This document shows, piece by piece, positions 35,739 to 63,400 of a stretch of 64,000 bases of DNA. The stretch is from Candidatus Omnitrophota bacterium (GTDB lineage: Bacteria; Omnitrophota; Gorgyraeia; Zapsychrales; Zapsychraceae): NCBI GenBank assembly GCA_015233115.1, contig JADFYJ010000012.1, positions 15,557 to 79,556 on the forward strand, read 5' to 3'. The notes under the pieces are model-generated. The model was given only the letters and a program-made list of their open reading frames with translations, was not told where the DNA came from and did not search any database. A program made the position numbers and the translations under genes. Position 1 is the first letter of the stretch, and each line of letters opens with the position of its first letter.

Positions 35739-35739
35739 A

Positions 35740-36400
<661 letters not shown>

Positions 36401-39400: not shown

Positions 39401-42400
39401 CTTGCTCACGGCATTGAGTTTGGATCATCGTCGTAATAAAAACATCATTCGGATAAATATCATCCAAATTCATGACCAAAACATATTCACAGGGATCAGC
39501 CGCTAGCGCGTCTTGAATAAATAAAAAATTATTTCCCGTATTGATCAGACCCGTTCCATCCGGAGCGGATACGCGATGAAAACACGGAGCATTTTTACCG
39601 TAACGATTTATAATACTTTGTTCTAGAGCCGGAGCACCAAATCCTGTTATAATAGTGACTGGTATTTCAAGTTTAAGCAATTTATCGAGCGTGTACGAGT
39701 AGATAGGACGACCATTAACCTCAATTAAGGGTTTAGGCATGTTTATGGTCGCTCTGGCTCTTTTGCCTCGCCCTGCTCCTAACACATAAGCCCGGACAGA
39801 TAAACCACTCTCTCTTTTCAAAAATTCCTTAATGTAACTCGCGCTCCCCGCAAAACCAATTTTCCCTCTAATATAAAGCTGTTCTCCTAGCTTAACCAAG
39901 GCCTTGGCCTCTTCTAAAGATGTAACATTAACCCACCTGTAATCACTGCTGGGAATTTCGCAATACGCGTGCTTCGACGAGCTCATGGCCTCAATCGAAT
40001 CAAAAAGCTGTCTGGTATTTTTCAGCATAAAGTTAAAGGTTTTGTCCATGACCGGATACGGCACCACAATATAATTGCCCTCGCCTGCCTGCTTAGCGGC
40101 CCATTGCAATACTTTTTCTCCGATTCCCTGCCTGGTATCCTGGACCCTAAAAACATGAACCATTAATCGCATTTCTTTGTGACCGGTGATCAGCCGGGCT
40201 TCCACAAAACCTATAACGGTGCCGTATTTTTCCAAAAAATATAATTCTTTGGCAAAAGGTTTCATAATCAAACCATCTGCCAAATCAACTTTACTTCCGG
40301 ACAATGCTGAACCAAACTGGGGTGGGGCCTGGGTTCTATAAGCAGAAAAACATTCTTGAAGCGTTTCTAGAGGAGAACACTCTGACCATTCCTGCACGAG
40401 TAATTCCATAATATGCGGCATATCCGCTGTTACTATCTTACTGCTCAACCAAATCAGACGTTCAATAATTTCCGCGATAGCCGCTTTTTTAAATTCATCG
40501 GTATCTTGCTGATGAAGGATTTTGAAAATTAGCGAGGCGCATATTTCAAGAAGCAATGGTTCCTCTTCACAAATTTTCGCGATATCCATGGTCATGCCAT
40601 GATGAATACAACACGGCTGCCAGGTAAAATCCACGGCGAGTTTTATGATGCTCTCGATCGCCTCAAACAAACGCTCTGTCAACTGTCCGCGAAATAATTG
40701 GACTACATGCTCAACGATTTGCTTATGGTCATCCAAACCCTTCCATGATTGGATCCGGGAAAACTCATCTAAAGGTTCTGCCCATTCGCGTAAAATTTGT
40801 CCGACCCGTGCTATTTCCTCGTCACACTTTCCCGCGAAATTCATTTGCAGATATTTCAGGTATATTTGATACAGCTCAAACAAGGCTTCCGGATCCTGGC
40901 GCAAACCTTCGCTATTCGCCGCATCATGCGACAGGTGGTTAACTTGTTCAAGTGTGGCATGAAGCAACACAGCCTGAGTGAGCCGTGTTTTTCCTGATCG
41001 GGTCGAATCTTTGATGGCGTTTAGGAAATATTGTTCCCAAAGACAATCTGAGAAGAAAAACTGTAACTGTCCGTCTACAAAACGTTCCCAAATAAAAACC
41101 GGCGGAGCGCGTTCACTTTTTTTGTTAAAAGCATAAACGTTGGGTTGTACATCTTTATCAATTGTAAGCCAATCCTTTTCAACTGGCATGACCTCTACAT
41201 TTTTCAAACTTTGCGCCGAAACGTTCAGTTCCTGTTCCGCGTTTTCAGACACGTTGCCGAATATACCGGCCATGCCAAACCAGCGGCGTTTCGCTTTTTG
41301 GACGGGATTAATAACCTGGTCGTATTCCTGCACAATTTCCTGGACTCCCCTGCATCCTGGCTGGCCATGCCATTTAGTATCAATCACCTGCTCCATCACC
41401 CGGATAAAATTATTTCCGATTTTGTCACGATTACGGGCGGATAAAATTAACTGCACCATTGGCTCTTTGTAAATACCCTGCAAATCACACAAACTAATAA
41501 CCAATTCGCCATCTTCAAAAAAAACCGTCACATAAAAATTCCGCAAAACCTTATTCCAAGAAAATTGTTTATAAAATTTTGGCTCGATATAAAGAGTGCT
41601 CCGATAGTTAGCGTGTTTTTCAGTAATCTGTTCGACTATTGCGTTGAATTGATCCAAAGTAAGAATGTTGTTATCAGGTAATTTTTTAAAAACCAAATTT
41701 TTGTTTACAAGGGGAACACCTAAAAATTCTTCCAACCAGGTTATTGGTTCCAAATGACGCCGATAGGGCACTGCCACCACTTGAGCCTCAAACGCGCCAG
41801 TCTGCAATGCCGGGACAGAAACCAGTAAAACATTTCCCATGGAATCCATTATCCGTATATCTCCCAATTCATTGGCCGCTTTCCTCGATGAAAAACTATC
41901 CTCATTCATAGCCACATGAATCCCCAAAATCAACCGTTCCTTTTGACGGGCCAAGTCGGAATTTTCGTCAGTCAAAAGGCCGCCGGCGGATTGATCCGGA
42001 TTCCATACTGACGTACCCCCGCCTTCAAAAACCAATTTAAAGGTATCCTCAAAAAATTTCGCCGAAGCCGTCATCTCAACTGAAATAAAATCTAAAATTT
42101 CCTTAGCTATCATTTCTTCGGAAATCAAATCTTCCCGATCCTTTAATTCTGTTAAGAACTCAAAAAGTTGCCCCACAAAATCATGCAAACTATTCTGGGT
42201 TATAAGCGGCCGCCCGTATAATATATCCAACTTGTGTTGTTTATCAAAAAATGCATCGAGTTGATGGCGGATTTTTACCAAAAAAATGCTCCGTAAAACA
42301 GGTATACTTTTTGTTTCACTCACCATATCCCAAACCTGTGTTGTTATTTCCAACAATGCCATACAAAGCCGCAAGTCATTTTTAATTTTTTGTTCAATTA

Positions 42401-45400
42401 TCTTCAATTCTTCAATCATTAGCGCGTGTTTGGGAATAGATCCGACCAAATAAGCTCTATGACTCAAATCTTCATAAAATACCAACCTAGCGTTTTCAAT
42501 GATAAACCGGGCGATTTCCAAAACTTTGGGATGGAAACGGTAATATCTGGCCCACAAAACCGGCAAACTTTCACCTGTTGCATTTGCCAAGCCCTTTAAC
42601 CGTTCATTAAATGCGCGGGCCTCGTTAATTTCAGTCCGTTCTTTTTCAGATTTCGCGGCTTCTGGTGATTTACCGGACAATACCTGTAAAGAATGCCACA
42701 AAGCCGGACCGCCAAAGACGGGCCGCGTAAGCCAGTTCATTTTATCTTCTTTTTTGGTTCTAATCCCGACAGATGTGGTTTGTTTAGGCAGCGACGGATC
42801 ATACTGAAATAATGACTGGAGAAATAAGTATTCACTTTTTCCAGCTAAAAAAACCAGCTCGAACTTCTGTCCGGACCGCGGTAAATCTCTTAAATAATCA
42901 AAAATCTCAACAGTAAATCCGCCTTCTAAAACCGGAGTATATGGAGAGGGCATTTCACCCGGCCATAATTTTTTGCGCGCAAAAATATCGCCGGCAATAA
43001 CCGCGCGCTTATACCCTTGGCTAATCAACCAATCAACCGCGGATTTTAAACGGCTGAGATGCCCATGGGGCTGGCTGATAAACACGTCTCGGTCAACCGT
43101 GTGATAAGCTAAATTACTGATCCATCTGCGGTATATATGATCCAACTCTCTCAAACGCGTTAAATCATATTCGGTGGCCCGCACATCAACATTCTTGACT
43201 TCATATTTGACGCGAGCCGGCCTGTTCATAGATTTCTGTAATAGAATTTCAATGGTATTGATATCATTGAATTTTAACTCGTATTTAGTTCTTGCTGTTG
43301 TGTTCAAGGCTTTTCGCAATATAACAGCAATTTTATTTATATCTTTTGGCTTCAACTTATTAATAGCCTCTATAATCTGCTCTTTGCTCTTTTTATTTAA
43401 ATTTAAACGCACCTGTCGAAAAGATATTTTCCCCCAAACAGTATTTTGGGTATCCGGATCTAAAACCGTGCCTTTCAGCGACTTGATTTTTATAAGAGAC
43501 GCTTTCTTAACGACCTCGTAACTCGCCCCCGCGTTTTCTTTTCGAATAACTTTTATAGCTTCAAAAACCTTATCTGTAATTAGCCGAAGCTGGACTTTAC
43601 GATCAATGACATTGCTCTGGTCAGTGCCTTGATCCGCGATAATGAGCACCAGAGCACTTTTTGTGATACGGGCTAAAGCGGCCCGGGTCTCTTCCATAAT
43701 TTTACTGACATGCACGTTGCCGCGAATCACTAAAACAGCTTCAGAACGTTCATCCGGCGTTTCTATACCAACAACTTGCGGTTCGTTATCTTCACCTTTT
43801 AACCATTCTCTCCATCGGCAAGGCTGTCCTTCAATAATATAACGTCCATGGACGTACCCGCTGATCATGTTATCGATTTCTGCTGGCGTTAATTTTGTTC
43901 TGCGGCGGGAAACGGGATAATAATATCCGCTGGCAGTTCTCCGTTCCCCCCTCAGCTTTACAAAATAAGTCGCTAAAGATGAAAAATACATTGTGTATAA
44001 CAATAGACCAAAAACATATCCCAGCGATACAGGCGTAACTGGAAATCCAAATAAAAAGCCTATCATTAACCCGCCCGAAATAAACAAAAGCTTTTTAGCC
44101 ATCGGATAACAAAACGTCATTTGTACCGCAAATGTTTCATCCCGGAAGCCCATAAGATAATGCAAAGTGGCGTGAAAATAGATAATTTTTTGAATAAACG
44201 GCGGAACAAAGCGCATAGCTTTAAAATCAATAAACATTTCACCAAAACCCCGGCTGAACTTGACATACTCAATTTTATGAAGAGATTCCGGATCGCGTTC
44301 ATAAAGATCGCGGATATCGCGCGCCTTGTGTAAATCCTTAAATTCAGGAATAAGTTCGTAATTGTTTCGCTGGAACCAGAAGTTATTCAAACGGAAATCC
44401 ATTGCCGACTCAATGAAACTTGCCGTAGCTAAGGGAAGAATGATCATGGAAGCCAAAACACTTAAGCAAGTGACATCCACCCATAATGCGCAGGGGATCA
44501 AAAAACGGGCAACGCCGTATATTAAAAAACCCACATATCCGGCATACGCACCGTAGCGGATACTCTCGTCTATGGCATTGCCTGTAGACGGCTCTTCTTC
44601 TGGGAACATCTGCGAATTTTTCACCAGCCATTTTGACGCGGTTAAATTTTTATCCGCAAGTGCTTTTGAAAAATATATTTGCTTTTTAAAATCCCATTCA
44701 TCTTGTTCGCCAATATACGTTTTTTTAGGATAATAACCTAACCAGTCATACAAAGCTTTTTGATCTTCACCTTTGGTAATATCAATCAATACAAAATCAT
44801 CTAACTCCTGTTCAAAATACCACTGTAAATATTCGATCCTGGCGATCGGTAATGGCTGACGGTCATCATTCGCGGTGAGCTTATCATCACTCTTTTGTCC
44901 TGGATAACCGGCAGAAAATTGGCCGTCTGTAAAGCTTAAATAAAATTTGCGTTTTTCAAATATAACTTCCAGCCACTGATGGAAATACTGTCGCGAACGG
45001 TCCCAGCCATCTTTCCGGGTTAATGTTATTCGAGGGCCAAAACGATTTTGTAAAATAAGCTCTGAAAGGCCTGAAGCATAGACACAGGTACGTGGATAAG
45101 TAAGGCCGTGTGAACCATCTGCCAAAAGAACTTCGCTTCCGGCGATAAGCTCGTATTGGACCGGTCGGTTTATCTCACGGATAAACGCTATCAGCTGTGA
45201 TGCGGAAGAAATTTCCATCAAATACGCGTTTAATTCCTGCTCTACAGCCAAAAACGAAAATTTGTATTCTTTTGCATGCGTTTCTTCATGAGTTATTATG
45301 GCCTGTCGAACAGCGGTGGGTAAGAAATAAAATGCCGGATGGTAATAAATTTTCCCGTCGATGGTCTGGGCCATTTCAAAGAAAGCAAATCTAGTTTCCA

Positions 45401-48400
45401 CAGGCGGCGCCCAATAACCAAACGTTATGGCTTTCAAAAAATAATATATCGCCAACGCGGAAATAATACACCCATCGTGCCATAAAAGTTGAGCCAAACC
45501 GCGCCAGCCTGTTTCCCTATGGATATCGTGCCACAGCGAAAACCAGGCAAAAACCCGACGAGCCATGATTATGGGTGCCAGATCCAACAACGCCGGATCT
45601 GAAAATTCGCCTTGCTGACCGTTACCACGGTTCACGCTGACCCAAACCGCATCAAATTTTTTGAAAGGCAGCTTCCCGGCAAAAGGATGAATGGGTTCTA
45701 GATAAAAAGGTGAATCTCGCTGAATATCGCAGCCAAAAGATAACTCCAGAGTATATTCCGACAAATATACCGCCATACTGTTACTTATACTTTCTACGTC
45801 CTGTGCGTAGGCCCAATAATCGATTAAAAACAAGGGGCAAACGCTCTCGCTTTGTCCTATCGAAGCGGTATCTAAAGATTTGATAACAATTTTAATGATT
45901 CTTTTTTTATTCTCCCCTCGTGGTTTAAATACGGCAACATGATCAAGATTTTTGACGTAAACTGAATTTTTCGGCAATGCCAACAATTTATGTAGCAAAT
46001 CACCAAAAACAATTGCAGATGCGTCCTTCCATCCAGTCAAACCCTTCCGATGATTAATCGCCGAATCCAAGACCTCATTAATTTCTTTGGTCATAAAAAA
46101 TTCAACAAATCCGGAGTTAACTTGTTCTATATTGATCTTCATTTCCGGCACTAAATCCACATAAAGTTCAACCGCGCATCCAGCCCCCCTGACTAAAGTT
46201 TGCACGACGCTGAATATGTCCTTCGCTACAGCTGATGTCAACAAAGCGTAATCCAGCACAAAAATATTTTTGTCGAAAAATTCCGCTTGATCGGCCACAT
46301 ATTCAGCTAAATTATCAAAACCAAATTTATCTAAATACTGGCGGACCTCGGCCATCATGTTGACCCGGTTAATGCCCATGTCCCCATTACAGCAGATTTC
46401 ATCCCGACTATTTTTCATAGACTCTTCATATTGTCGGATCATTTCGCGGCGTAAATGCTGAAGTAAAACAATCAATGGACTTACTTCGTCCTTTTTGTGC
46501 TCTGGGCAAACCAAAACAGCAAACGCGCTCTCTCGTGCATGAAGGCTCCCTTTTAGATCAAGCAAGCCTAAATCCCGACGTTCTTCATCGGGAATTTGAC
46601 AGTTCTTTTTAGCTTGTTTTTCAATTTCTTCATCAATAGCTTTACGTAATTCCGGGCTCTCTTCATATCCAGCTTCCCGGAAAGCGCCATAAGCCTCATG
46701 GGCTAATACTTCCTGCCTTAAATCTCTCGGCGCTTTATACCAAAGCCCTTCTGCGACCCATATCTGAATTTTTTTATGATCCTCATCTATACTCCTCGTC
46801 GCAAAGATATCTCGTCCAGGAGCAAAATCCTCAGCCGGAAAATCCTCGTTCTGTAGCACGCCCAACCCATATGTTTTTCCCCGCGTCCCTGTAGATAAAG
46901 GCGACACGACCATATAAGATATGTTCCATCCGTTCGCGAAATTTTCTAAATCGGCCGCATTAATACCCCGCTTTCTTAAGCCATCTAAAATAAACTGCCA
47001 ATAAGTTTTTTTAAAATCATTAGAGTGGATTAATGCTTTTTTGAAAATTGTATCCATAATCCGTTCCGCCACAGCCTGAACCTTTCGAGGGAGCTGATAT
47101 CCGCAGGCCGACACGGCGCCTCGCGATCCAAACACTACACAAATATCTGTTAGATAATACCGGCGGGCACCTGGAAAACGCTCTTTAAGGTCTAATGAGA
47201 AAACAACTTCTTTTACGGCCTGGCCCTGCCAGTCAAAAGGCTGGTCATAAATAATCTTGATCCTGGTTTCTTCACCATTATTAGATGAAATTATTTTTTT
47301 GCGGCCCTCTTTCAACATGCGCGCTATTATATCTGGAGTTTCTGGAGCAGTACTTATTCTTATTCCCTCTGCCTCCCTGCCGCGTACTCTAAAAGCAAGA
47401 CGAATATTAGACAACACCTTATCGTGCTCACCATTAATATCTAAAGAGAAATCTGACCGACGAATTGATTTTCGCCAATACCAAAAATAGAAATCTCTTA
47501 ATTCTCCCCTTTTATACCGGTTATTTTTACCAAATAAGGGGAACGCATTAATAATTTCCCATACCTTCCCTTGCTCGGAATCTTTTCTTAAAGAAACGCC
47601 CACATGCATAAACTCAATACCAAAACGGCCAGACTCATCTTCGGTTAAAAAATAACGATAGCAATCATCACCCGACAATGTATTAGTGTGGTAACCTTTT
47701 TCTAAAGTCAAAAGAATTAAACCCAGGATCTGATGGTCAGAAAGATGTTGAGGAAAAATAGAATCACCGCTCGGACGTAAAAGTTTCCCTGCTATAGTAT
47801 GACGAGCCAAGATATGACGCCAGCCCTTTGTTGAAGCCGCGCCTTGTTTAAGAATAAATTGTTGCTGCTTATTATTGTATTCACGCGTTAACGAAAACAC
47901 TTCCTGCTCCATAAAGTCACGCGTAATAAGAACTTCATTGTCCCGGTTCACTGGTTCCGGTCCTTTACTTTCAGCGGAGACTTCTTCTGGCTCAGTATTT
48001 TCCTTATTTTCAGTAGATAAAGGCTGACTCTTTATAAAGGTATTTTTATTAGTGAACCGGTATTTAATTAACGTCCAAATCGCGCTGACACCATCGATCC
48101 AGTTAATGGATTTGCCCTGTTCAATGGTCCGGGGAGTCCATTGAATTTGTTTTTCAATTATTTTGTGCCCTAAACGAAGCACTTTGGCAGTAATTTCTGG
48201 CTCTAATTCAAAGTGCTCGCCTTTTAAAACTAACTGTCGTAGAAGACGAGTCCGATAGAGTTTATATCCAGTCGGTTCATCAGTAATTTGAGAACGGTAT
48301 AAGAAATTTGTCAACCAGGTCAAAAGCCGGCCGCCAAAATAAAATCTCATATACGGGACGTTTTCGGGTTCATGTTCTAGACGGCGGGAACCATAAACCA

Positions 48401-51400
48401 CGTCCACGTTAGGCTGTTCAAACAATTCCACTAAACCCGGAATATCGTTCGGATCATATTCACCGTCGCTATCCTGAACCACGAAAATCTCTCCCGTAGC
48501 CGCCTGAAGCGCGGAGCGGACGGTCATGCCTTTTCCCATATTGGAAGGATGCTCAATAACCACGACATTAGGCTGATTTGCCAAAGAGCGTAACTGGTTT
48601 AAAATAGCCGGGTTGGCCTTATTCACTCCGTCGATAACAATAATAATTTCTTTGTTGATAGGAAGGGCTTGCACGTGTTCGAAAACAGAAAATATAGTGA
48701 TTCGCTTAGCGCGCGACGGCATCACAATAGAAATTTTTACTTGCGGTAATGCCATCAATGCTGACCTGGTTGGTGATCCAGATAACCCCGCGTCATGCTT
48801 GCCAAACATTTTGACTAAAGCATCTCTCCTGAGCTTTAAGGCAAACTTAATATATTCCGCCAAACCTCCAGCTTTGATAGCGGCATGGAAGGTATTTATG
48901 GGTGCCATGCGTTGATAACGAGCTTTACGATTCCAGCGTCCGGCTTTATTTTCTGTTTCCAATTGCCTAATCCACTGAGCGAGGATGGCAAGGCCCTGTT
49001 CTCCTGAGGGCATTCCTGACCTATCCACAATCGTGGCGATTTGTTCATCCGTAATCGAGCCGATGCGCTCTACCAAGGCGGAAAGATAATGTTCGTTTTG
49101 CGCCGCGAATCCATAAGCTTCATTGACAATATCTCTTGAGCCTAAACGGGGCGAACGTAAAATATCCTGCATAATCAATGCGTCCATGCTCGCGGGAAAA
49201 GGTAAAAATCCACCTGTGGCGCGGAACATTAAAGAACAACCAAAATCAATGTGCAGAACCGGCGGACCGCGTATGTCATCCGAACGTTTAAAAAGCATAT
49301 TTTTAGGAACACGATCCCTCTCTCCTAGTAATAAACTTAAAATAAATGCGCCTTGTATTTCAGCAGTATGATGAAAAGGCGCATCCAACCATAATCCTCC
49401 CATACGGTAACCTTCGGCATATTCCATGGCCAAGACATCAGCCATATCTGGTTCCGCGTTAGTCGTCTGCTGTAATTTACCAAACCGGTCCCTTTGTTGC
49501 ACCTTGACACGCTGCATTTTAACAACCGGCAATCCTAATAATGCGAAAAACTTATGGGCGATAATCTCGGTCCAGATCAAATAATCAACGCCGCTCTTAA
49601 TAAGAATTTTTTCGCCGGCCAGTGAATCCGTGTGCACATCAATGGGGTTAGTAAAAAACCGAGTGACGTCTAAAGGCTTTACAAATGAAAATCTCGAATC
49701 TAATTTGCCTCTGTCATCCGCGTAATTTCCTTCGGCTAAATGAATAAGTTCTTCACCTTTAATAGCGGCAATAGCTTCCGGAGTCCTTAAACCTTGTAAA
49801 AGATCCTGTTCTGTTGGAGCGGAATACCGTCGGATCAGCATTCGTCCTTCCCGTCCGTACAATTTAACCATGGCATCATCAATCGTTTGCCGCGCTTCCG
49901 GATCTTTAACCTGTTGGAGAGCCTGCCTCATATAGCGTCGAATCGAAACTTTAACCGGCCGCATTTCTCCTAATATAAAAGCCGCGCTTTCCACAATCCA
50001 CGGTTGGCGGGACAATAAATTCTGACGAAGAACTTTAACCAGCGTCGGGTTTTCCAGTTTTCCGCGCACCGGAATGATGGCTTCGATAACCGCGATCCAC
50101 GCTTCTTTTTCCGCTTCCCGTTGAAAGGAATCGAGGCACCGTTTAAACGCCGGCGCCCAAATTTCAAAATCAAAACTCTCCAACATTTCCGTTAATATTT
50201 CCTTGGCGTTTTTCCATAAATCTTCGTCTAAGGTTTTATGAATTAAGACCGCGAAAATTTTTTCTAAAATTTCAAAACGTTCCCCCCTGTTCAGCTCGCC
50301 AAAATATCTTGATCGTATCGCCCACAAATGCGCTATCCGGTTTGATAAAACGTCACCTGCGCCTGCTGTTGGCTCAGAAGCCCAATTAAAATAATATGCC
50401 GCTCTAGGATTTTTATTAAAATGCTCCCGGTAACTCAACACTAATTGTGCCGAGTTCCACACGTACTGTTGATCCGCGTTATAAAAACTTGGAACACGCA
50501 GCTTTAGAAAATTCCGGTATATAAAAAATTGGGCAAACAACTCTTTTGCATAAACATAACCGTGCATAGCCGTGATGATAATCGGAATAAACCAAGAAGC
50601 CGCTATTGTCAATAAACTTCCTGGATACATTTTTTGCCGTAACCGCATTAACCGGCTCAACATAATCGGCGCGTCTTTTTCCAGATCAACCGACGTGCCT
50701 TTTTTGTCTTCATTCCAAACAATAGGAACCTCTTTTAAACGGTATCCTGCTATAGCGGCTAAAAACAAAAGCTCGACATCAAAAGACATTTGCCGGTCTT
50801 CCGCACGACTTAAAATATCTTCCAGCGCTTCTCTCGAAAATGCTTTAAACCCGCATTGCGTATCCGAGACCCGCTTTAAGGGAGGGAATAAACTATGAAT
50901 AAAAAAATTAAAAACAAAACTGGATAAGCGAGCCTGTTCTGATCGGCCTTGCGTTTTAGCATCCTTGACATAACGCGATCCGAACACCACATCCGCGGTC
51001 TGTTTGACCAAACTATCGAGTAAGAGATGAATTTGTTTTAAATCTGTCGATAAATCTGTATCCGTGTAAAACACATAATCCGCTCCATTTCTAAGTGCGT
51101 CACGCATTCCATATAAAACCGCCCCACCTTTTTTTGATTCGTCAACTGAACTTAACCCCTCTTGGGCCAAAACATCTTCCAGCGCCAAAGTCCGCACTTG
51201 ATGATTTTTAACAAATTCCGCGAAATCTGGATTAGACCTTAAAATCTGATCAATAAGTTGTTTCGTTTCCTGTAAGGGAGACCCATCATCAACAAACACA
51301 ACTTCCCACACTGTGTCAACATGGTTCCGGAAAGCTTCCTTCATTTGCGCTAATTTTTCATAAAGAGAATTTTGTCCGTCAACATGAAAATTGGGATGCC

Positions 51401-54400
51401 ATAAACGGGCGCCGCTCCGGCAGGGAACGATCACACTAATCTTTTTGCGCGCGGCTATTTCTCGGGCCGCTTCTTTTTGAATACCCAATAAAATCTCCGC
51501 GATGATCTCCCGCCATCCGTCAGAGCCGACGAAAATAGTCCCATCCCAAGCCCATATAACTAATTGTGGATTAATGCGGTTAATAATTTCCTTAAATTTT
51601 GCTTCGTCCGTAAAATCTTTTATGATGATGGCGCTTGGATTGACTTCTAATAATTTTTCCGCGTCTTTTGACTGACGGGCCACAGCAATAAATGGTAATC
51701 CCAAATCTTTAGCTAAACGCGCGTCTTGCCTGCCGTCGCCAATGGACAAAACTCGCCGAGGATCAATTTGCTGTTGTTTGATAACCGCTTCAACGATTTT
51801 CTTTTTATCAAAAAGAGCCACACCCAAAGCCAAAGAACTCGGGCTCAGCTCAGCATAAACTTCTTCAAAATATTGCCGAACATTTAACGCGGCCAATTCC
51901 CAGACTTTATGTTCAATCGGCCCGCCGGAAACTAAAACCATTGGCGCAGACATGCTTCGCAAAAATTCCAGAAAATTTTCAACACCTTTGGCCAATGGTT
52001 TTTCAACTTCCCATAATGAAGATTTGGATTTTTTTAATTCCAATGTTCGCTCATTAAAAATTTGATAATATTCCCCGGCCGATTTCAGCGCCCGCGCCCC
52101 TTTTGTTTTTAAATAATCCAAAACCCATTCAATTTGCTCCAGAGGAAGAGATTTAGGATTTTGGCTCAGTTCCCCCGACCACGACCCCATTAAATCCCGC
52201 GCCTTTGTCCTCGCAGTCTTTTCTGTCAATTCAAATTTTAAAGCACTTTCCGAAGAAAAAACAAAAAAACGGTCTGTAAGATCACCCGTGTTTCTGGCAA
52301 TCAGATTATTATTCTGTAATAATTCTATGGTGAGGGGTTCCGCGTCTCGTTCTTTCAATCTTAACAACGCGTGCAGAATAAATTCATGGTGAGCCATGAT
52401 CTGGGAATATTTTAAGGACACATCGTTCGACAAATGCACGGCCTGAATATGGACAGCATTCTCAACGTAATCATACCACATCGACGAAGCATTAATTTCC
52501 GCAGGTTCGATAATGATATTTGTTTTAAGCGGCGGCCCGGTTACATAATGTGACATAAAGCCCATAATTTCTTTTAACCGTTCCTGATAAGCCGGATTCA
52601 TTTGGGCCCATAAAGTCTCATCCCATTTAAAATTATTTTTCCCGCGAATAATGACTTGGCCTAAAGGCACAGGTGTAAAACCGGCCACATCCGCGGGGAT
52701 TGCCATAACTTTATCCGGCGCGTTCACACGTGTCTGGTCTAAAAACTCCTTAATGTATGCCACCGTCAGCCGCTTGGTTTCCTTTAATCGGTTAAGCCCG
52801 TAAATCAATTTACCTTGGGGATCTACGCCATCAATTCTGGCATCGTGAGTCCAGGCCGGATCTTCATAAGGCAAGAAATCACCATGCGCGGTAATATCCT
52901 GAAGCGCGTGTACGCCCCGTCCTAAATAATAAAAAATTTGATAATGAGATGTGCCTTTTTGAGCAGCCGTTTCAAGGGCTTTTTCCAACATTTCTTTCGC
53001 AAAGATTATCCGTGAATCATTTTCCTGATCTCCTGCCCCATTAGGTTTACGGTTCATGTTCATATGCATACGTAGATATTGATATTCAGCGCTGCGATAA
53101 AATGGCACAAAATTCAGATAAGAATCGGTGGTGATGCAAGCGGAAGCCAGAAGTCGAGCTTCCCATTTATCGAATCCTGCTTTTAATGCCCACGCATAAG
53201 TTGAATCTACATAATACCGGTTGAAAAGCGGCACACCATAATGAATTTGGTTGGCTGCCCAATTAATCATAATGCGTCGGTCAAAATGTCCCCAATGATT
53301 GACCGGACAAATATAAAAAATAAATCCAATCGCCCGGCGTAAAAGGCTATAAATAAAACCATTGAGCAAAAGTAAATATTCGTGAATACGGTCAACAGCA
53401 TGGGAAGGCAAGATATCTCTGCTGATAATCCCTGGCGGTTGATTTTTGAATAAACGAAATATTTTAACTTTGTGGTGAAAATCTTCAATCAGTGCGACTA
53501 CGAAAAATTTCCACAATGCCCTTTGGATCGAGTATCCATAAATCATAAATCCCACAAAAAATATCACCGCAAACAGTCCGATAGGAATCGCAATGCACCC
53601 CAATGCGGCCCAGTCCAAGTCATTTCCTGCGAGAGAATCAACATACATTGTTCTGGTCCAGGCTTTTGATGAAACAGCCATGAACGCGGCCATGAAAATA
53701 AATTTAACAACAGAATACCCGTTGCTTCCCCCTGCCGTTTTTATCGCTTCAAATTTTATTTGTCTCAAAAGCCAGCCGGTTGCTTCAGCTCTTTTTAATT
53801 TACAGATTAAAGATACCGGTATTTGGTTTTCAGATTCATAATCATACCTATTAACCGAAAAACTTCCTTTCCCAACTAATAAAGAATGGTCAACAGCTTC
53901 TTTTTCTGCCATATCTCCAATTTTCACGACTTTATCTAATTCTAAACTAGTGTCTTTTAAAAAATGCTTTAAAGCTGTTCCCTTATTTAATCCTTTGGAT
54001 GAAATAGTTATTGATCCTGAAGTTTCTATTGAACTGCTGCGTAAAGCGGTTAGCGGTAGTCCTGACAAATCAAACAACTGATTAATTCTTTGGACCATAT
54101 TCATTTGATTCCCAGGTTTTTTAGGCCAAATATGTATTTTATATTTACTCACGGAATAATCTTCATCATAGGCCAAAATATATGTTCTCAATAATGAGAT
54201 GGCGGCTTGGGTAACATATGCGGGTATGGTTTTTTCATAAAATTTACTAACAGATCCTCTATCTAAACGATAACCATACGCGCCATTGACAGGATAAATA
54301 TAGAAAAATGGTAAAGTATGAAGATTGCAGCGAGCATGATTTAGAATTAGATTTAAAAATTTATTACGCAAAGAATCATCCGTACGTGCTGTAATAATAC

Positions 54401-57400
54401 CTACATAAATTTTTTTATTTGCTAAATCCACTAATTGATCAACGATAAATTCTGGCAATTTACCTCGTTCATCCGTCAAAGTTTCATCCACGTCAACCAC
54501 AACACCTTGATAACCCTGCGCCAAATATTCATTAAAACGATATAAATATCGGTCAATGTTTTCCGGCGAAACCTGGCTTGCTTGTTCATCATTTTTGATT
54601 GAATTCAATGCGTCAAAAATCAATTGCTTATTTATGGACGCTTTTCTGCCATTGTTTGCCTTATTTCGCATCAAATAATAATACTGCTGCACTTGAGCGG
54701 CTTCTTCTTGAGTATTAAAACCAATCACTTCATATGGATCAGAACAAGCAATTCCTATAACCGTCTCACCTAAACGAGTTAACAAAGGAATGATTTTTAA
54801 AAAATTTAATTCTGAGATTTTACCATCCATAACCCCGGAATCATTGATAAGCTTTTGATTATAAGCAAACACTTTTCGCTTATCAAAAATGAACACGCTA
54901 CTATCATGCTCACCAAATAAACGTTTTTGTTCAGGGTGTTCTTTGGTTAGAAAAATACCCTCGACCTCCCCTTGGTCATTTCGGGTTAATCCGGCATACG
55001 GCTCTCGTTCCCAAACCGTAGGCATGGTCATAACCGTATGATCTAATAACTGGTGAACAGCCAAAGCGGTTTTTAAAGTCTTATCTTGAATATTTGTAAT
55101 ATCACCCCACATCAGCAATACGTCTCCATCGAAATCTTTTAAAATGCGTTCACTGCTCATCAACGCAACGGCTGTTCCGGGGAGAGTTTTAACCACTACA
55201 ACTTCCACTTGATACTTTGGATAAGTGGTTAAGAAATCGTTGATCGCGAACTCGTCTTCTTCCCTTACAACTAAGACTGGTTTAGTATCAATATTTTTAG
55301 TTGCTTCTAAAAGATGCGCCAAATTAGGACGTCCGGCTATGGGATACAACACTTTAGGTTTATCCGACTGCAGACGGGAAGCTTTTCCTGATGCTAAAAT
55401 AACCACGCGTACAGGCCGAAGGGGTCGGTATTGCCCAATGTCCTTAATGCCGGCCAAATCGCAAATAATATTTTTAATTTTTCCTTCATAGTCATCAAAT
55501 AAAATTGGATTATTTAATAAATACCTTAATTGATCTTTGGCCTTTGCCACCAAATCATACAGATTTTTATGGGTTAACCGTCCTTTAAAAATTCTATATC
55601 CAAGATCATCCAAACCCTCCAGACTACACAAAATTTCAGCCGTTAAATGCGAATCATGCTTCCCGCCCTTGCTAATCGCCGCTTTTATCGGTTCAATGCC
55701 CATAGAACAAATATATTCGTCATCAATCGGTATATGATGAGCTTGCACGACACCATCTGTCCGGTTTCCGTGATAATCCACCAAGACATAATCAAGGACA
55801 GAATCAACCCCCGTGTCTTTTCCGTCATTGAGATACTGCTGCAATTGACGCATATTTTCACCTACCGTCAATTTCCCCCTTTCACGGACTAAATTAGCTA
55901 CGACTATTTTTAAACATTTTTTTTCCCGTACCGCCTGCGCAATGCCCTGGGTTATTAATGTGGGCGACAAGCTGGAGTCAAAAGTCGTGGGAGCAAACAC
56001 AATCGCGTTAGTCCCTTTTATCGCGTCCAGTGCTACTTGCTCCGCCTGAGGATAAATGGCAAAGCGGTTCTTCATAAAAGCTTTCTTTTCGACGATAGAA
56101 CAGCACGCGTTGAACTCTGCCATTTCATATTGATCAAGAGTTTTTCGTACTAAATATATAGCCGAAATTTCATCTTCCAAATTGCGGTCAACAATCTCCG
56201 CTTCACAATTTAATAATTGTCCCTGCTCAGTAATAGCCACCAGCCATAAAGGTTCCTGGTTATTTAAAACAATACTCCCTTTCAAATTAAAATCCTTAAT
56301 CATTCGATTAATAGCCTGGTGATAATCTCCACCATAAAAATAAAATGCGCCCACAAAAATTATGTTGCGCACACCGTAATCCCTCAAATCATATGTTTTT
56401 CCATTTTGCTGTTCCCATTCATCTAGTCTGGCGTTAAACGCACTTAAATAATTTAAAATAATTCGCCGCATTGACGGGTTAAGTTTGTCGACCAATCTCC
56501 CCAGCTCATTACTTAGATTCCGTTCTGCCGTGACATCCATGATCATTTGACGATAATAATTAACTGAACCTGTCCGCCCCAATCTGTGCTCTAATAGCTG
56601 AGTCATATCCGGGTGCAGATCTTGAAATAAAACCACCCAATTTTTCGCAATGTCTGACGGTCCCAACAAACCAAAATTTTTTCTTATATCCCCAGTACTC
56701 TTGCCATCATCATAAGCATTTAAAAGCATTACCGGGTTTACCCCTTGACCGAGTAACCCTGTGGTCAATTTGTTTGAGCCTGTTCCTCCCGAAAATATAA
56801 CCATAGAATTTTGACTATTTAATTTTTGCGCAAAAATTATTTCATATATCTTTACAAATTCTTCTTCTTTTTTATCCTCATTTGGACCTTTTTGAACGTT
56901 GGCCAGTTTTGCCCTCAAAACCCGTAAAACATCTTCTCTATTTTTTAAAATAGAGTGTTGTTCGATATAAGAAAATAGTTCCTGTCTACCCTGTGAACAA
57001 ACCTCCAACAAACTAGTCTTATTTAAACAAGGCCTAACACTGACTAAATTTAATTTTTGAACGGTTTCCAATATTTGTTGTTCGTACATATCATTTTCGA
57101 TAACGCTTTCCTGAGCACTACCAAAAAGGCCATCTGCTTTTTTTTCCTGCCCATATAAAATACTTGTTAACGGTCTCCGGTCCACGCCAAGACCAGAACC
57201 TTTTCTGGTCTTCGCGGTTAATAGTTTATTTTGTTCCGCGGCCACATATTGCTGCACATCCGCGCTGGAACCTAAAAGCATGGCATCGACAATTTCTAAT
57301 TCATCAAAAAGCTTCACGACATCATACAAACCTAGTTCATCTTTTTCCTCCGGATTGCCGCGCAAAGATATTTGGACAATTTTTCCGTTTTTATTTAAGC

Positions 57401-60400
57401 CAATGATCGACATCGCGAACCGCGCTACATTTTTATCCCAAGTCGCCTCGTGTTGAGCTATGTGAGGACAAGCTTTTTGAATTTCGGATATGCGGTTCTC
57501 ACCGTTAACCCTTAAAAGCGGTCCGGTCAGTGCGTTTTTAATATCATAAATGTCTTCTACTGCGGCACCATTTCTTATCGTCACCTTGCGGAAGCCTAAA
57601 TTATTCGAGTCCAAAACAAAAAACACATACTCACCATTTAATGGCGTGAATTCCTGCTGGCCAATGCCATGCGCAGTTTTTGAGATAATTTGTCCGTCAA
57701 CAATTAACAAAGTATTCGCCAAATAAAAATTCCCTTGATGTCCATTAACCGCAAAAATTAAATCCTTATTAGCCACAAATTCTTCTACGGTTAAACCCGG
57801 AAATTCCTTAAATTGCAACCCGTGATCCACCGCGAATTTTTCCAAAACAGCATACCGCGAAAAATCATACGCGCGTCCTTCCGGATCAAACCAAAGTTTC
57901 AAATCAATTTTAACGGGATCGAAAACTATCACCCTGCCTTGCGCAGCCTGATTATCCTTTTCAAATGAAACATCAGAAATCACAACACCATTGCCGGCTG
58001 GCCGATTCTCAGAAATATTAAATAGTGATAATGCATTAACATTTTGTAATAATTTTTTTCTATATATTTTTTCCTGTTCTTCCAAAAATAATATATGCCC
58101 AGCTCCTTCCTCCACAACCATCCCTGTACTGACATCCATTTTAATGAGCTCATACAATAATGGATAAAGCCGATGGTTAAAAACAGCGGCCAATTTCTCA
58201 AATGAAACTTTAGGATCCCGTACCACTCCACCAAAACAATGATTGTTTACCAGCCATGTTACATCGCGTACGACCCCGGCCCCAAAGCCTATTTCTCTTA
58301 ATATACGACGGGTCATAACCGCTGAATATCGATTATGCTGTCTGCCTTTTTGATCCTTAAATGATTTCTGCCCGTCCGCATCTATTTTCTGCAACGCGGG
58401 ATGTCCTTTTGAAATGTCGTGGAAAAGAACAGCCAGTTGTAAAATAAACTTGCTTTCTCCCAAAATCAGTTTAGGAAAATGATTAAATAGATGAATCGTA
58501 TGCTGTAGCGCGTCACCTTCAAAATGAAATTTATAACCCTGATGCGCGCCGTCCAGTATAGATAAAAAGGGTAGTAAAGATGTCAACAGCCCATTCGTTC
58601 TTAAAATCTGCAGCGTTTGCCCAACATGAGGTGTCTTGAAAATATGTTCAATATTCAACCTAATATTGCCGGCATCTACAATCCCAATGCTGGCTAGTTC
58701 TCTTTGGATTTGTTTTAAATATAAACAGGTCTTATTAACTCCGGCTTCTTGTTTATCCGCAGGCCGTCCCGGTTCTTGAATAATAACGGCCATCCGCGTG
58801 TGATCAAATTCAAAACCATGGACGCTGAACTGAGCCAGAAGCAAAGTTTCATTTTCTTTGACCTCTATATCTTTAATCTCAACCGCCTGAACATTGGATA
58901 CCTGCGCATTCGCTGTGCCTCCCTTAACCAAAATAGCTTCTATGCGGCTTCGCCCATCTTTATTATGCTGATGCATGGCCTCTTGGCCCGTTGCTTCTTT
59001 AATTCCCACTCCGATCGCCGCGGATTTAGGAGTAATGAGCGCCATTTTCGACGGCATAGCCATAGTTTCTCTATAAATTGACGCCAGCAACAACCCGTCC
59101 TGATCCCGGTAAACTTCAGCGGCAATTGCCCCATCCCGTATTATAAATCGGCCGTCCGCGGTTTCCTGTTCCCCCTCGATCATTTCGTGTCTGTCCGCGA
59201 CAACCGCTAGCTCGTCAGTCTGCCGGTAAACCAAATATTCTGAATCTTTGGCAAAAGTCAGATCCATATGGCTAAAGGACGCGATAATATCCCCCGCTTT
59301 GACCAGGAATTCCCGACCATCCGCTTTAATTTTAACTACTGCCTCGCCGCTCTTTAAATAAATGACAGCCTCATATTTCTCATTCGCAAAACCGGTCATT
59401 GATGAACCGCTTCGATACGATCCGGTTTCTATCTGAATCGGATCATTAATACTGGTTCGCGCTTTATTACCTACCTTAATCTTTATCGCCACGTCTTCAT
59501 CTTCAACTTCCACCAACTGCATCATGCCAATTTCTTGTTTCACTTGATCAACAGCGGCTTGGATATCCGTCGGAAGCTTACCGCGATCAACACCCTCGAA
59601 TGATAAAGCCGGAATATAATTAAATCTCGGCTTAGCATAAATTTCTAATTTCTCGGCTTCATCAATTAAAGTTGCCAGATAATCAAGATCATCTAATAAA
59701 TCCCCCTCAGGAATAAATGCCGCGCGGTTGAATGCTTTGACATCCGGATATTTAGTTCTAAACCATTTATCAAAAGTTAAGCCCATTCTTCTTTGCAAAG
59801 GCGGTTGTTGAATGAGAATCACCTTGTCTACCGGTAATCCTAAAAATTCAATCTTGTCGCGGGCTAATTCAACATTTTCCTGGCAATTGCGGGACTCAGT
59901 TACAAGATAAAGTTTTATGTTATTAATTTCAGCTTCACTCAAACCTTCTCCCCTAAGATATGCCCTGAACACTTGCTCCATAATTTCCGCCTCCGCCAAC
60001 CCGGAAAGCTTATCCGTAGATATCTGAAGATATTTTGCCGCCTCTTCCACCAAATTCACTGTCGAATGCCCAATCCCGCCGACAAACATAATGGCATCCG
60101 CCTTACCATCCAAATATAAACGAGCCGTTTCAAAAACCGTTTCAAGATATTCGTTGCCGAAAGCCATAATCCAATCAACCTTGGCGGGCAGCGCGTCTCT
60201 TTGGGCGAGAAAAGAAACTAAAAAGTTTTTAGCTAAGGACGCGATACCAGCTACGGTTATAGTGCGCCTTATTACTTCTTCTTTTTTATCATTTAAAACT
60301 GTAATAACCCCTGGACCATTTTGAATTTTTCTGAAAATAGCATTTTCAACCGCGGATGGCTTTTCAGTAGGAACTTCAGATTCGATAAACTTAATATCTA

Positions 60401-63400
60401 CAAAACCTTCTTGTTGCGTTGCCGGTGGAGCGTTAGCTTGAACAACATTTTTAGTCTGCTCTAATATTGCGTCGATTTTTGTTTGGTAACAAGCTTTACT
60501 ATTTGCACCGGTCAGCATCAAAACAACATGTTTAACACCGATACGAATTAAGTATTCTTTCAAGTTTTGTAAAGCCACATAAGGAGTAACGGCTCCTCCT
60601 TCTGCGGCAATTCCCGCAAACAAAAACTCTTTTGCCGCATCATAAATATGTTTTGACGATACTGTGATCACCCCGTCACTTAAGGCGTTGAGTACTTCAA
60701 ATGCTGTTGGCTCCAAAACTTTTGTATCCAAACTATCCTCTGCTAATCTTCCGGAATAATCAGTATAATAACCAACCAATTTCCCTGCTTTTAATGAACA
60801 ATATGCATGTTTAGTTCTTTCGGTCTGAACAAGAAAAATCTTAGTCCGCGAATTTTCTCGTTTAAAAGCCAGCGTAACACCGCTGGCAAATCCACCAGAA
60901 CCAACCGGCGCGATAACAACTGCTCGATTCAAATCCATATTTTTTAATTTTAATTGTCGTATAATATTTTCATTCAATGCGGCATATCCAGCAATAGTAA
61001 ACTCATTGGCATGTCGTACAAAATACCTGTTCTCTTCCAGTTTAGACTGAGTTAACGCAGCATCATAAGCTTCTTCATAATTCATAAATTTTTGGTCTGT
61101 ATTATCTTTATATTGAACAACTTTTGCGCCTAGCTCTCTCATTTTTAATATTTTAGTTTCCGGAGTATTTGCTCCCACATAAATAATTGCCTCTAATTTC
61201 CTCCCCAACTTTTCTCCTACAACCTTTACAATATAGCTCATGGCAATTCCTTGATTTCCAGTAGTAGCAGTTACAAAACTATCTATTTTGGAATTGCTCC
61301 TGGCAATCTTGATCATCTCATATCCGGACCAAGACTTAAACGACCCTGTAGGTTGTTCACCCAACTCAACAACAACAGTGTTTAAATCTTCACTTTGAAA
61401 AATTTCAGAAATCTTAACTTCAGATAAACCTAATACGTCACCCAATACTACCTTAGCCTCATCTACATCAAAAATACTGTCTAATTCTCCATAATTATCC
61501 TCACCATCTCTGACTAAAAAACTAAAATCTAGGTTTTCAGTATGGATTTTAAACTGTGGTTTTGATAAATAACGCACACTCCTTAACAATTTGTCCAACC
61601 GATCACTTCTTCCTATTAGTTCTCCCAATGAATAATATTCATCTTCCGCACATTCTAAATATTTATCTCTTATTTCATTAAAAAATTCCCGGCCTTTTGA
61701 TCCGCCAAAATAATATTCATATGCCAAATATTTTAAAATATATTTTCGTGGATTATCCTTTAAGGTGAACTGCTTGGAAACCAACCTACCGCTTTGATCA
61801 TGATGTCTGATCCAAAATAAAGAATCGAATTCACTTGCCCTCTCGATTAAATAATCTCTAATTTGTTCCCTTAGGTCAAGGTCAGTTAAATTGGCTTGAT
61901 CAAAATACCTAAAGAAAAAATCAACTTCTTTTATAAACATCGTACCAAACGATATATCGGCAATCGATCGTTCCGGTATCATTCGTTTAATGTTCTCAAA
62001 ATTCATATCCCATTCTTTAATGAATCCATTTAAAGTTTGAGCGAAAAACTCAAGCATGTTGTCAACATCTTCATCCGCGGCATCTCTAAGCAAATTAACA
62101 TTAAAATCAAAATCTCCAAATTTCTCTACCCCTATTTTTTTTAATCCAGCCGCCAAAAAATCCAAACTCCCCCCAACCTCAATCGATATCAATTGAGGAT
62201 ATATTTCCTTTGTTTTTTCAGAGCTAATTCGAACAGCTTTTGAAAAAACGGCACATGGGAATGATTTTCTGTCCGTTAAATTATAACCATGATCGACTAA
62301 AGAAATACTTGCACGCATGAATTCTAATGTTTTTATTTTTAAGCGCCGGACAGCTTCTTCAATCACCTCATCAGCCACAATGCCATAAAACGCACCGTGA
62401 TCCAACTCCTCTATCGTCGCGTCTAAATTATCTTTATTATCTTTGAATTTTTGAATTGTACTCGCGCAATTTATAGAAGCCTGACCTTGAATATCAGATC
62501 TTTTTTTAATTATTTTTCCCATATTTACTAAATAAGCTTCCTTTTCACTTGCCCCTTCAAGATGTGCTTGCTCATGCACATCAATGGCTTGTTGATAAAG
62601 CCTCGACAAATGTTTAAACGCGATATCGTGTGAATTAGGCGTAGCCAGCGGAGCTGTTAACGCTTTATAAAAACCTTTGAATAATCCATATTCCTTGATA
62701 AACGCTTTTAATATTTCTACCGCTTGCCGCAGAAGACTCCTGCCCCCTCTTCGCAAGAAATAAATACCAAACCATACTGTTCCCCAAAAACATACCGCAC
62801 TATTCATCCAAATTTTTATATGTTCATAAACCACTAATACTTCTTTTAATTGTTCTTCTTTTTTGAGTTGTTCCTCTTTTGGCAGATGAGTATTCTTATC
62901 TCTATGCAATTCTTTGGCTAATTTATTTCGCGCGGCCTTCACTTCTGCCCAAGACGCGCCTTTTTGCAAACCTAAAACTTCAAAAGCAGGTGCTTCATGA
63001 CCGTTATTTCTGCTTCTGCGCTGATTTTTTTGCTCTTCGGATTTCTTTTCTTCTTCGTGTTGTCGCTTTTCCTCTCGCTTTCTTCGCTCCTCCTGCTCTT
63101 GTCGTTCTTTTTCTTCGCGTTTTGCTCTTTGCTGCTGTTCACGCTCTCGGTTGGCCTTATCTCTTTCTCTTTCCTGATTTAAAATTTTTTCATTATAAAT
63201 ACTGACTAAAATTTTATTAAATTTCCCAATATCCTCTCCACCTTCTAAATTATAAGCTTCAAAAAATTCATTATTAAATACTTTTTCGCAATCAATATTT
63301 TGCTCATGCAATCTATTTAAAAAATCAAGAATAAATTCAACCCGTGGCTGTACTTCATGCTTTTTAGAAGAATAAAGAGCTATTTCTAAAACTAAGCCCT

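Follow-up and report, generated by a model that had tools for sequence, protein, structure and literature searches.

Many long Omnitrophota proteins carry the same Pfam domain more than once, which raises the question whether such copies were generated within the gene by duplication or were acquired separately from different members of one superfamily. Here, we examined this question for a giant protein encoded in a 64,000-nucleotide stretch (hereafter the window) of contig JADFYJ010000012.1 from Candidatus Omnitrophota bacterium (assembly GCA_015233115.1). The corresponding open reading frame (ORF) occupies window positions 36495..63989 on the minus strand, comprises 9,164 codons and is open at the right edge of the window. 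As 0 in-frame stops could be found upstream before that edge, the protein is longer than 9,164 amino acids (aa) and its N-terminus lies outside the window. Residue aa N of the giant corresponds to window position 63989-3(N-1), and window 48090-55418, which drew attention to the protein, to aa 2858-5300. At 41% G+C, ~6% of random codons would be stops, and a stop-free frame of 27.5 kb is thus not a chance event. Neither the opposite strand nor the remaining frames hold an overlapping ORF of at least 150 aa.

An earlier interpretation made from the DNA alone (the sequence-only reading) had assigned two nucleotidyltransferase (NTase), two HAD-like and two DPM1-like GT2 domains to this protein, and had suggested either that two sugars are added sequentially or that a biosynthetic cassette was tandemly duplicated before fusion. 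The presence of all six domains was confirmed: Pfam places each of them as claimed and above its curated cut-off, and the motif positions quoted at that time were right within one residue (DVDETLT at aa 3166, AWDGTI at aa 4147 and SIGDGRQD at aa 4082). Pfam tiling of the whole giant yielded ~14 distinct families, none occurring more than twice. The order of the domains is NTase no. 1, HAD no. 1, a transmembrane hairpin, ~460 aa, HAD no. 2, GT2 no. 1, a transmembrane helix, a HEAT/kinase-like module, GT2 no. 2, ~2,750 aa and NTase no. 2, in which no cassette recurs. In a protein of such size and kind, the occurrence of the same superfamily twice is expected and represents no statistical anomaly. 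We consider the following explanation the best one and assign it, as a whole, a probability of about 0.7: the giant is probably a mosaic, membrane-anchored multi-enzyme protein, in which the NTases would make nucleoside diphosphate (NDP)-sugars and the GT2s would load sugars on polyprenyl phosphate (Pol-P), and each of the three pairs appears to consist of distant members of one superfamily, which were brought into the polypeptide independently through module fusion or shuffling, with no internal duplication.

For the GT2s, the relationship between the two copies was analyzed with relatives collected by HMMER, aa 4141-5329 being searched exhaustively against 1.84 billion representatives. GT2 no. 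1 (window 50628..51449, minus strand) spans aa 4181-4454 by family alignment (Pfam Glycos_transf_2 at aa 4286-4392), and GT2 no. 2 (48045..48737, minus strand) spans aa 5085-5315 (Pfam aa 5087-5252, 83 bits). The two share 24% identity over 194 residues (32 bits). Identity to their own outside families was 34-41% for GT2 no. 1 (125-170 bits) and 40-47% for GT2 no. 2 (165-210 bits), and cross-family scores were 15-48 bits or none. When the family alignments of GT2 no. 1 (A1) and GT2 no. 2 (A2) were compared by hhalign, a probability of 99.7% (E 1.4e-26) but only 17% identity was obtained, so the two families have a common superfamily only. Similarly, NTase no. 1 and NTase no. 2 could be aligned in their N-terminal halves only (~25% identity, 104 columns, hhalign probability 56%), and the NTase domains of P0001 and P0002, two proteins described below, share 42-44% identity with NTase no. 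1. The HADs belong to different classes (IIB versus IA/IB-like) and displayed no specific similarity (hhalign probability 0.8%). Internal repeats were not revealed by self-BLAST of the giant (E<0.01), nor were DNA tandem repeats across the 27.5 kb by Tandem Repeats Finder. The pairwise alignments that the sequence-only reading had proposed as a check for a shared subfamily place the two GT2s in different families and show the two NTases to be only distantly related. Considering the closer outside relatives, the differing HAD classes, the lack of repeats and the unrepeated order, an ancient tandem duplication of a cassette was not borne out.

Both GT2 families were found to be nearest to the Pol-P glycosyltransferases DPMS, ArnC and GtrB as judged by profile comparison, and GT2 no. 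1 also by predicted structure. For both domains, the best NCBIfam models were dolichyl-phosphate (Dol-P) hexose transferase (NF041391), AglJ (TIGR04182) and PpgS (NF058614). Neither reached the equivalog cut-offs: GT2 no. 2 scored 74.9 bits against 325 for AglJ (E 7e-21), 54.1 against 375 for Dol-P hexose transferase and 39.1 against 370 for PpgS, and GT2 no. 1 scored 30.1, 38.2 and 27.5 bits with the same three models, respectively. Searched against PDB, the A1 profile had PfDPMS as its sole match (E 1.8e-17), and the top matches of the A2 profile included PfDPMS (5mlz, E 8.5e-29), ArnC (3e-26) and GtrB (2.6e-22). The single sequence of GT2 no. 2 also matched 5mlz (E 2.3e-9). When GT2 no. 1 was modelled by AlphaFold2 (AF2) from its family alignment, a pLDDT of 83.7 and a pTM of 0.86 were obtained, and ranks 1-22 of a Foldseek search of this model against PDB were all DPMS, ArnC or GtrB chains (best match 5mlz, E 4.3e-15, TM-score 0.67). 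PDB matches of GT2 no. 1 to de novo TIM barrels and WD40 proteins were rejected as low-complexity or repeat artefacts, as no single stretch of them was significant.

The residues expected for this group of enzymes were examined in the family alignments. The motifs VDDGS, KGGA, TDTD, GSRY, RLSS, DTQCGFK, FDVE and EVPIVW could be identified in GT2 no. 1, and IDG, GKG, QDSDGEYDP, YGSR, TDEPTGYK, FELEPEITAK and PR..EQGKSI in GT2 no. 2. The DxD motif (TDTD at aa 4309-4312 and QDSDGE at aa 5172, respectively) aligns in both with 89-DAD-91 of PfDPMS (5mlz), and both Asp residues are invariant in A1 and A2. FGSRY (aa 4336) and YGSRR (aa 5199) align with IGSRY of 5mlz, the Arg being invariant in both families. 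In PfDPMS, this Arg (Arg117 of the GSR motif) binds the acceptor phosphate, and true DPMSs also conserve Arg131 and Ser135, which contact the acceptor phosphate, and Lys178, which contacts mannosyl O4/O6 (PMC5526996). In GT2 no. 1, an invariant Ser-Ser of A1 aligns with Ser135, the Arg equivalent to Arg131 lies one position away and Asp stands in place of Lys178. Judged from such positions, neither GT2 is predicted to be a bona fide mannose-specific DPMS. The DPM1/GtrB-like character claimed for both domains was upheld, as far as the enzyme group is concerned, by the NCBIfam and PDB profiles, by AF2 and Foldseek, and by the invariant DxD and GSR Arg; on proper alignment the DxD and acceptor motifs proved to be conserved in both. 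GT2 no. 1 also contains an extra segment after strand 1 (family consensus NP.GED.LR.K..QL) and a second insertion before the KGGA loop. Its presumed likeness to eukaryotic ALG5 (Dol-P-Glc synthase), for example in DTQCGFK, is regarded here as a lead and not as a result.

Thus, with the characterized Pol-P GT2s (PfDPMS 5mlz; Salmonella ArnC 9bhc, 8vxh and 9hwj; Synechocystis GtrB 5ekp and 9nyc-f), the GT2s of the giant have in common the GT-A fold, the DxD, the GSR Arg and the C-terminal E..PI..(R)..G.S acceptor-loop region. The predicted transmembrane helix following GT2 no. 1 would be a further likeness to DPMS and GtrB. On the other hand, the known enzymes are stand-alone proteins of 230-370 aa, whereas the GT2s described here form part of a polypeptide exceeding 9,000 aa. 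Moreover, GtrB and PfDPMS have 2-4 transmembrane helices, whereas in the giant one is predicted after GT2 no. 1 and none after GT2 no. 2.

The two GT2 families also differ in the proteins in which they occur. Domains of the GT2 no. 1 type were almost confined to large multi-enzyme proteins (600-4,246 aa), sometimes in 2-3 copies (three in P0125, two each in P0253 and P0208), together with UDP-glucose dehydrogenase, PRPP synthetase, phosphorylase, NUDIX, HPr, APH or histidine-kinase ATPase domains. Two GT2 domains also occur in the small proteins P0126 and P0157 (472-482 aa). The presence of at least two Pol-P-type GT2s per protein is a recurring theme among the relatives. The GT2 no. 2 family is widespread and consists of small, mostly soluble proteins of 225-250 aa, with hundreds of homologues at 40-47% identity. 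Fusions of its members to enzymes acting on Pol-P-linked sugars are frequent, with fusions to PMT_2 (P0130), YfhO (P0131) and a WecA/MraY-type Glycos_transf_4 domain (P0140). PMT_2, YfhO and Glycos_transf_4 enzymes all use Pol-P-linked substrates, and these fusions would provide independent support for a lipid-carrier role of GT2 no. 2. No orthologue of the region could be identified by a scan of the genome and metagenome contigs with aa 3930-5330, which returned generic GT2 matches at 23% identity only.

NTase no. 1 (window 54660..55418, minus strand, aa 2858-3110; Pfam NTP_transf_3/NTP_transferase at aa 2860-3106) is part of a larger conserved unit. A word-based search with aa 2850-5330 retrieved two proteins only, P0001 (2,677 aa) and P0002 (2,866 aa), which are other Omnitrophica proteins, P0002 being from Omnitrophica metagenome-assembled genomes (MAGs), and both matched in the NTase no. 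1/HAD no. 1 block only. Over aa 2298-3419, they are 42-44% identical to the giant, and this block contains a CofD/YvcK-like domain (55620..56807, minus strand, aa 2395-2790; Pfam CofD E 3.7e-28), the NTase and the Cof-type HAD. NTase no. 1 and HAD no. 1 are therefore members of a conserved three-domain CofD-like/NTase/Cof-HAD block. The CofD-like domain is also matched by the NCBIfam CofD_rel_GAK and YvcK models, in both cases under the cut-off. Beyond the block, nothing in P0001, P0002 or their neighbouring genes matches the giant. In two Omnitrophica MAGs, the genes flanking P0002 lack homology to the rest of the giant, and the possibility that the giant is a fusion of the genes of the P0002 locus was therefore rejected.

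The CofD/YvcK-like domain is closely preceded by a NAGPA phosphodiester-glycosidase domain (aa ~2078-2240), which scored 29.9 bits (cut-off 25); the region from NAGPA to the end of the CofD-like domain is aa 2078-2790 (window 55620-57758, minus strand). It is not part of the segment kept in P0001 and P0002, which is limited to CofD-NTase-HAD. Taken together, NAGPA, the CofD-like domain, NTase no. 1 and HAD no. 1 suggest a sugar-phosphodiester chemistry comprising nucleoside monophosphate (NMP)-activation, phospho-sugar transfer and uncovering. In the F420 pathway, the logic of CofC/CofD is NMP-activation followed by phospho-group transfer, and YvcK is a CofD-family protein that binds UDP-sugars. 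The giant resembles these systems in that a CofD-family domain directly adjoins an NTase. However, this NTase is GlmU-like rather than CofC-like, and the F420 CofD equivalog model (cut-off 257) gives 16.6 bits with the CofD-like domain.

NTase no. 2 (window 38985..39800, minus strand, aa 8064-8335; Pfam aa 8067-8330) lies outside window 48090-55418 and is a divergent GlmU-N-like domain. Both NTases had GlmU as their best NCBIfam match, NTase no. 1 with 96.2 bits (E 2e-27, profile positions 2-238/452) and NTase no. 2 with 64.7 bits (E 6.8e-18, positions 3-252/452), both far under the equivalog cut-off of 366.85 bits. In PDB, NTase no. 1 matched GlmU 9dqf (E 2.2e-16), and NTase no. 2 showed a weak GlmU match (E 3e-4); the Pfam scores of the latter were 34.1 bits for NTP_transferase and 31.1 bits for NTP_transf_3. 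NTase no. 1 possesses the signature loop LASGKASRLQSDKPK and a WGD metal site, in agreement with the motifs of the GlmU N-domain, and its LA.G.A.RL...K.L and WGD motifs are kept in P0001 and P0002. The corresponding loop of NTase no. 2 is LGAGRGKRARATINMPK (G-x-G-K-R...PK), and its NLDD aligns with the GD of GlmU at the Mg2+-binding position. Thus, both NTases have the N-terminal pyrophosphorylase part in common with GlmU, including the G-x-G-(T/S/K)-R...PK loop and an acidic metal residue. They differ from it in matching only approximately positions 2-250/452, without the acetyltransferase domain: the left-handed beta-helix acetyltransferase half of the glmU profile is absent from both matches. 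A GNAT-like signature, RQGIGEKV, was observed at aa 7916-7975 (window 40065-40244), ~90 residues upstream of NTase no. 2. This segment (Pfam E only 0.16) and NTase no. 2 would mimic the two activities of GlmU by way of another acetyltransferase fold. A word-based homologue search with the GNAT-like region and NTase no. 2 revealed no homologue at E<=1e-5.

With regard to the HADs, the motifs named in the sequence-only reading held with the exception of AWDGTI. HAD no. 1 (window 53775..54512, minus strand, aa 3160-3405; Pfam Hydrolase_3 at aa 3163-3360) is of Cof-type/IIB, with NCBIfam matches to HAD-SF-IIB and the Cof-subfamily and a IIB-type cap. Its four HAD phosphatase motifs are intact (DVDETLT, ITART, KG and KIGD...VD) and are kept in P0001 and P0002. 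The core of HAD no. 2 (51609..52133, minus strand, aa 3953-4127; Pfam Hydrolase/HAD_2 at aa 3996-4103) is IA/IB-like, similar to TM_1254 (PDB 3kbb), and has a helical cap region and motifs II-IV (VLVSGG, K and SIGDGRQD), but no canonical motif I. The Hydrolase and HAD_2 models match it at profile positions ~76-191 only, and 3kbb aligned from chain residue 66. At the place expected for motif I stands FVFSSES (aa 3909). AWDGTI, previously listed as a HAD motif, follows motifs II-IV and has Ala at the position of the nucleophile Asp.

AWDGTI belongs to a motif-I-like strand and helix, LVIWAWDGTIFVGSDGWREIIAEILLGI (window 51480..51569, minus strand, aa 4141-4170), C-terminal to the HAD no. 2 core; the region holding both motif-I candidates is aa 3909-4170 (window 51480-52265, minus strand). 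In P0125, which has a homologous HAD, the core (aa 3953-4127 of the giant) matches residues 1619-1790, and aa 4141-4170 aligns to residues 1561-1588, N-terminal to the P0125 core, such that the order is permuted between the two proteins. The latter alignment is weak (11/28 identical by eye, the covering phmmer match scoring 3 bits), and in it the AWDGT strand resembles the N-terminal motif-I strand AIDWHRS of P0125. A single-sequence AF2 model of HAD no. 2 had a pLDDT of 46.7, too poor to choose between a permuted and a decayed motif I. HAD no. 2 is best seen as a non-canonical domain that may be inactive or may have undergone circular permutation. The stretch of ~460 residues that separates HAD no. 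2 from the first transmembrane hairpin (aa 3488-3952, window 52134-53528) had DUF6765 as its best Pfam hit (E 0.038), with no significant Pfam match and no PDB sequence match.

Between the two GT2s lies a HEAT-like plus PI3/PI4-kinase-like module (window 48762..50345, minus strand, aa 4549-5076), which contains the catalytic-loop-like segment GERDRVPKNMLF and HIDFG. The Pfam PI3_PI4_kinase model matched with E 6e-6 and 26.7 bits, slightly under the cut-off of 27.1, and a PDB sequence search with the module yielded no match. The module recurs with 35-43% identity and at varied positions in the large proteins P0123, P0124, P0127, P0227 and P0230, all of which keep DRxPxN and DF(G/A). As blocks of the giant recur beside different partners, the giant appears to have been assembled from shuffled modules.

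Membrane segments were predicted by a Kyte-Doolittle hydropathy scan only, by which the giant would contain five transmembrane hairpins and a single helix (window 50559..50621, minus strand, aa 4457-4477) directly after GT2 no. 1. One hairpin is predicted at aa 3427-3487 (53529..53711, minus strand) and another at aa 8348-8392 (38814..38948, minus strand), directly after NTase no. 2. No predicted transmembrane helix adjoins GT2 no. 2. The catalytic motifs are kept in all six domains except HAD no. 2, those of NTase no. 2 being weakly supported. On this basis, the GlmU-like domains may convert sugar-1-phosphates to NDP-sugars, and the two GT2s may transfer two, probably different, sugars from NDP-sugar to Pol-P. 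The resulting lipid-linked monosaccharide donors would serve cell-envelope glycosylation. HAD no. 1 could act as a sugar-phosphate phosphatase, and HAD no. 2 is probably non-catalytic or a permuted remnant. It is possible that two different sugars are handled; a specific NTase-GT2 pairing and channelling between the domains are conjecture.

Several observations weigh against this explanation. The main difficulty is the lone helix: should aa 4457-4477 cross the membrane, GT2 no. 1 would lie on one side of it, and GT2 no. 2 with all that follows as far as the next hairpin on the other. An all-cytoplasmic model is at odds with this arrangement and would require the helix to be re-entrant or interfacial. 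In GT2 no. 2, Arg131 of PfDPMS is aligned (in the single-sequence alignment), the Ser135 position is occupied by Phe/Leu and Lys178 is replaced by Glu; as GT2 no. 1 has Asp there, this Lys is retained in neither GT2. All NCBIfam equivalog cut-offs were missed by a wide margin, and neither the sugar nor the carrier specificity is fixed by these matches. In addition, NTase no. 2 is located 2,750 residues from the nearest GT2, which makes its pairing with a particular GT2 conjectural, and substrate channelling between the domains is pure inference. Finally, the N-terminus, which lies beyond the window, may carry a signal peptide.

A more far-reaching version of the proposal, which we regard as rather doubtful, would see in the giant a self-contained, membrane-tethered lipid-linked-sugar factory. 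Two independent lines, leading from sugar-1-phosphate through NDP-sugar to Pol-P-sugar and using two unrelated Pol-P GT2 subfamilies, would be physically coupled to the NAGPA-like/CofD-like/GlmU-like/Cof-type module and to a PI3/PI4-kinase-like lipid kinase. A whole envelope-glycosylation pathway, together with a circularly permuted HAD, might then reside in one polypeptide.

We also examined the other genes of the window. Among the ORFs of the stretch that reach 150 aa and have a Pfam match, only one lies on the plus strand, a 552-aa ORF of the PMT_2 family (20221-21879). PMT_2 belongs to the GT-C enzymes that use Pol-P-sugar donors, and the encoded protein could use the products of the DPM1-like GT2s of the giant. 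Directly downstream of the giant is a pyrimidine operon (29902-36297, minus strand) with a phosphoribosyltransferase gene, pyrB, pyrC, pyrK, pyrD and pyrF, in which an fpg/mutM DNA glycosylase gene is inserted between pyrC and pyrK. Beyond the pyr genes, genes for nicotinate phosphoribosyltransferase and isochorismatase were found, and further downstream mnmE, purH, era and others. The nicotinate phosphoribosyltransferase shows 100% identity with a Candidatus Omnitrophica MAG protein. A 976-aa ORF (22467-25397, minus strand) between the NAD-salvage genes and the PMT_2 gene had no Pfam match at E<=0.001. In the giant itself, a J-domain-like segment was observed at aa 336-389 (window 62823-62984), with 23-25 bits against a Pfam cut-off of 27.8 and HRD in place of the canonical HPD. 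Dockerin, glycoside hydrolase, peptidase and secretion-related domains were absent from the Pfam scan of the 9,164 aa, as were GT5/GT1 and NUDIX domains.

Three other explanations were considered. First, the giant might be a secreted or surface multi-effector directed against prey or host in an Archaeovorin/MARTX-type manner, whose GT2, NTase, kinase-like and J-like domains target the molecules of another cell or extracellular polymers rather than the lipid-linked sugars of the producing cell. Predation and cell-wall attack have been associated with Omnitrophota giants, many of which have signal peptides. The PI3/PI4-kinase-like module and the J-domain-like segment have a eukaryote- or effector-like flavour, and the N-terminus beyond the window leaves room for such a signal. 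However, the NTases and Leloir-type GT2s need nucleoside triphosphates and NDP-sugars, which are cytoplasmic. The membrane segments are mostly hairpins, which would hold the flanking domains on one side of the membrane, and the Pfam scan detected no domain of the dockerin, glycoside hydrolase, peptidase or secretion-related kinds. The flanking genes are also housekeeping genes (pyr operon and NAD salvage) with no secretion machinery among them. We thus consider an effector role unlikely.

Second, some or most of the paired domains might be decayed pseudo-enzymes or scaffolds, in which case a two-track logic would have no biochemical meaning. This is plausible for HAD no. 2 only, which lacks the canonical DxD nucleophile (FVFSSES in its place and AWDGT after the core). 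It could also be noted that NTase no. 2 is very divergent, the word-based search having yielded nothing for it at E<=1e-5, and that the usual YNE after strand 1 is absent in GT2 no. 1. However, both GT2s and NTase no. 1 retain every family-invariant residue when compared with homologues at 34-47% identity, and in NTase no. 2 the G-x-G-K-R...PK loop is retained, as is an acidic residue at the Mg2+ position of GlmU. Moreover, the absence of stops over 27.5 kb points to selection acting along the entire ORF, and general decay appears quite improbable.

Third, the ancient tandem duplication of an NTase-HAD-GT2 cassette, before or after fusion, with the two cassettes adding two sugars successively, may be dismissed as highly improbable: although each of the three superfamilies occurs twice, the GT2 profiles are homologous at superfamily level and both NTases match GlmU best in NCBIfam and PDB, the domain order is unrepeated, each copy tested is far closer to outside relatives than to its inside partner, the HADs have different cap classes and neither protein nor DNA contains internal repeats.

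The mosaic, membrane-anchored organization that we favour is consistent with what has been described for other giant proteins of this phylum. West-Roberts et al. (2023; bioRxiv 10.1101/2023.11.21.568195) reported giant proteins of Omnitrophota in which glycosyltransferase, HAD and HD domains occur among other enzyme domains. A 2026 preprint on 916 Omnitrophota proteins of at least 10 kAA (10,000 aa) defines a class of "multi-enzyme metabolic clusters", states that 65% of the Pfam-positive long proteins repeat at least one Pfam, the repeats not being recent nucleotide tandems, and finds most long proteins to be sequence-unique; 46% are transmembrane-only, which its authors read as inner-membrane-anchored cytoplasmic domains (bioRxiv 10.64898/2026.06.07.730766). 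The giant resembles the multi-enzyme class in its phylum, in its tiling with enzyme Pfams (HAD, HD, glycosyltransferase and kinase-like), in Pfams that recur without nucleotide tandems and in its transmembrane anchors, and it is itself nearly unique in sequence except for the shared modules. The class is characterized by Omnitrophota origin, by many distinct Pfams of which none dominates and by a length of at least 10 kAA; the giant has at least 9,164 aa in an ORF cut by the window. Archaeovorins (West-Roberts et al.) are characterized by dockerin/cohesin, GT5/GT1, glycoside hydrolase, peptidase and NUDIX domains; none of these was detected in the 9,164 aa of the giant, which in this respect departs from that class. 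The combination of a CofD-like/NTase/HAD block with two Pol-P GT2s and a PI3/4-kinase-like module is not mentioned in the available parts of both bioRxiv works. On the whole, the giant extends an already described pattern of Omnitrophota giant multi-enzyme proteins and reveals no new one.

Our data provide information on how giant multi-enzyme proteins of Omnitrophota are built, namely by the separate addition and shuffling of superfamily modules and not by duplication within the gene. The CofD-like/NTase/HAD block, the GT2 subfamily specific to giant proteins and the HEAT plus PI3/4-kinase-like module are reusable modules that could be studied in isolation. If the two GT2s indeed load Pol-P with two sugars, the giant would represent a compact system for lipid-linked sugar supply in an uncultured phylum with an unusual, possibly predatory, cell-surface biology.

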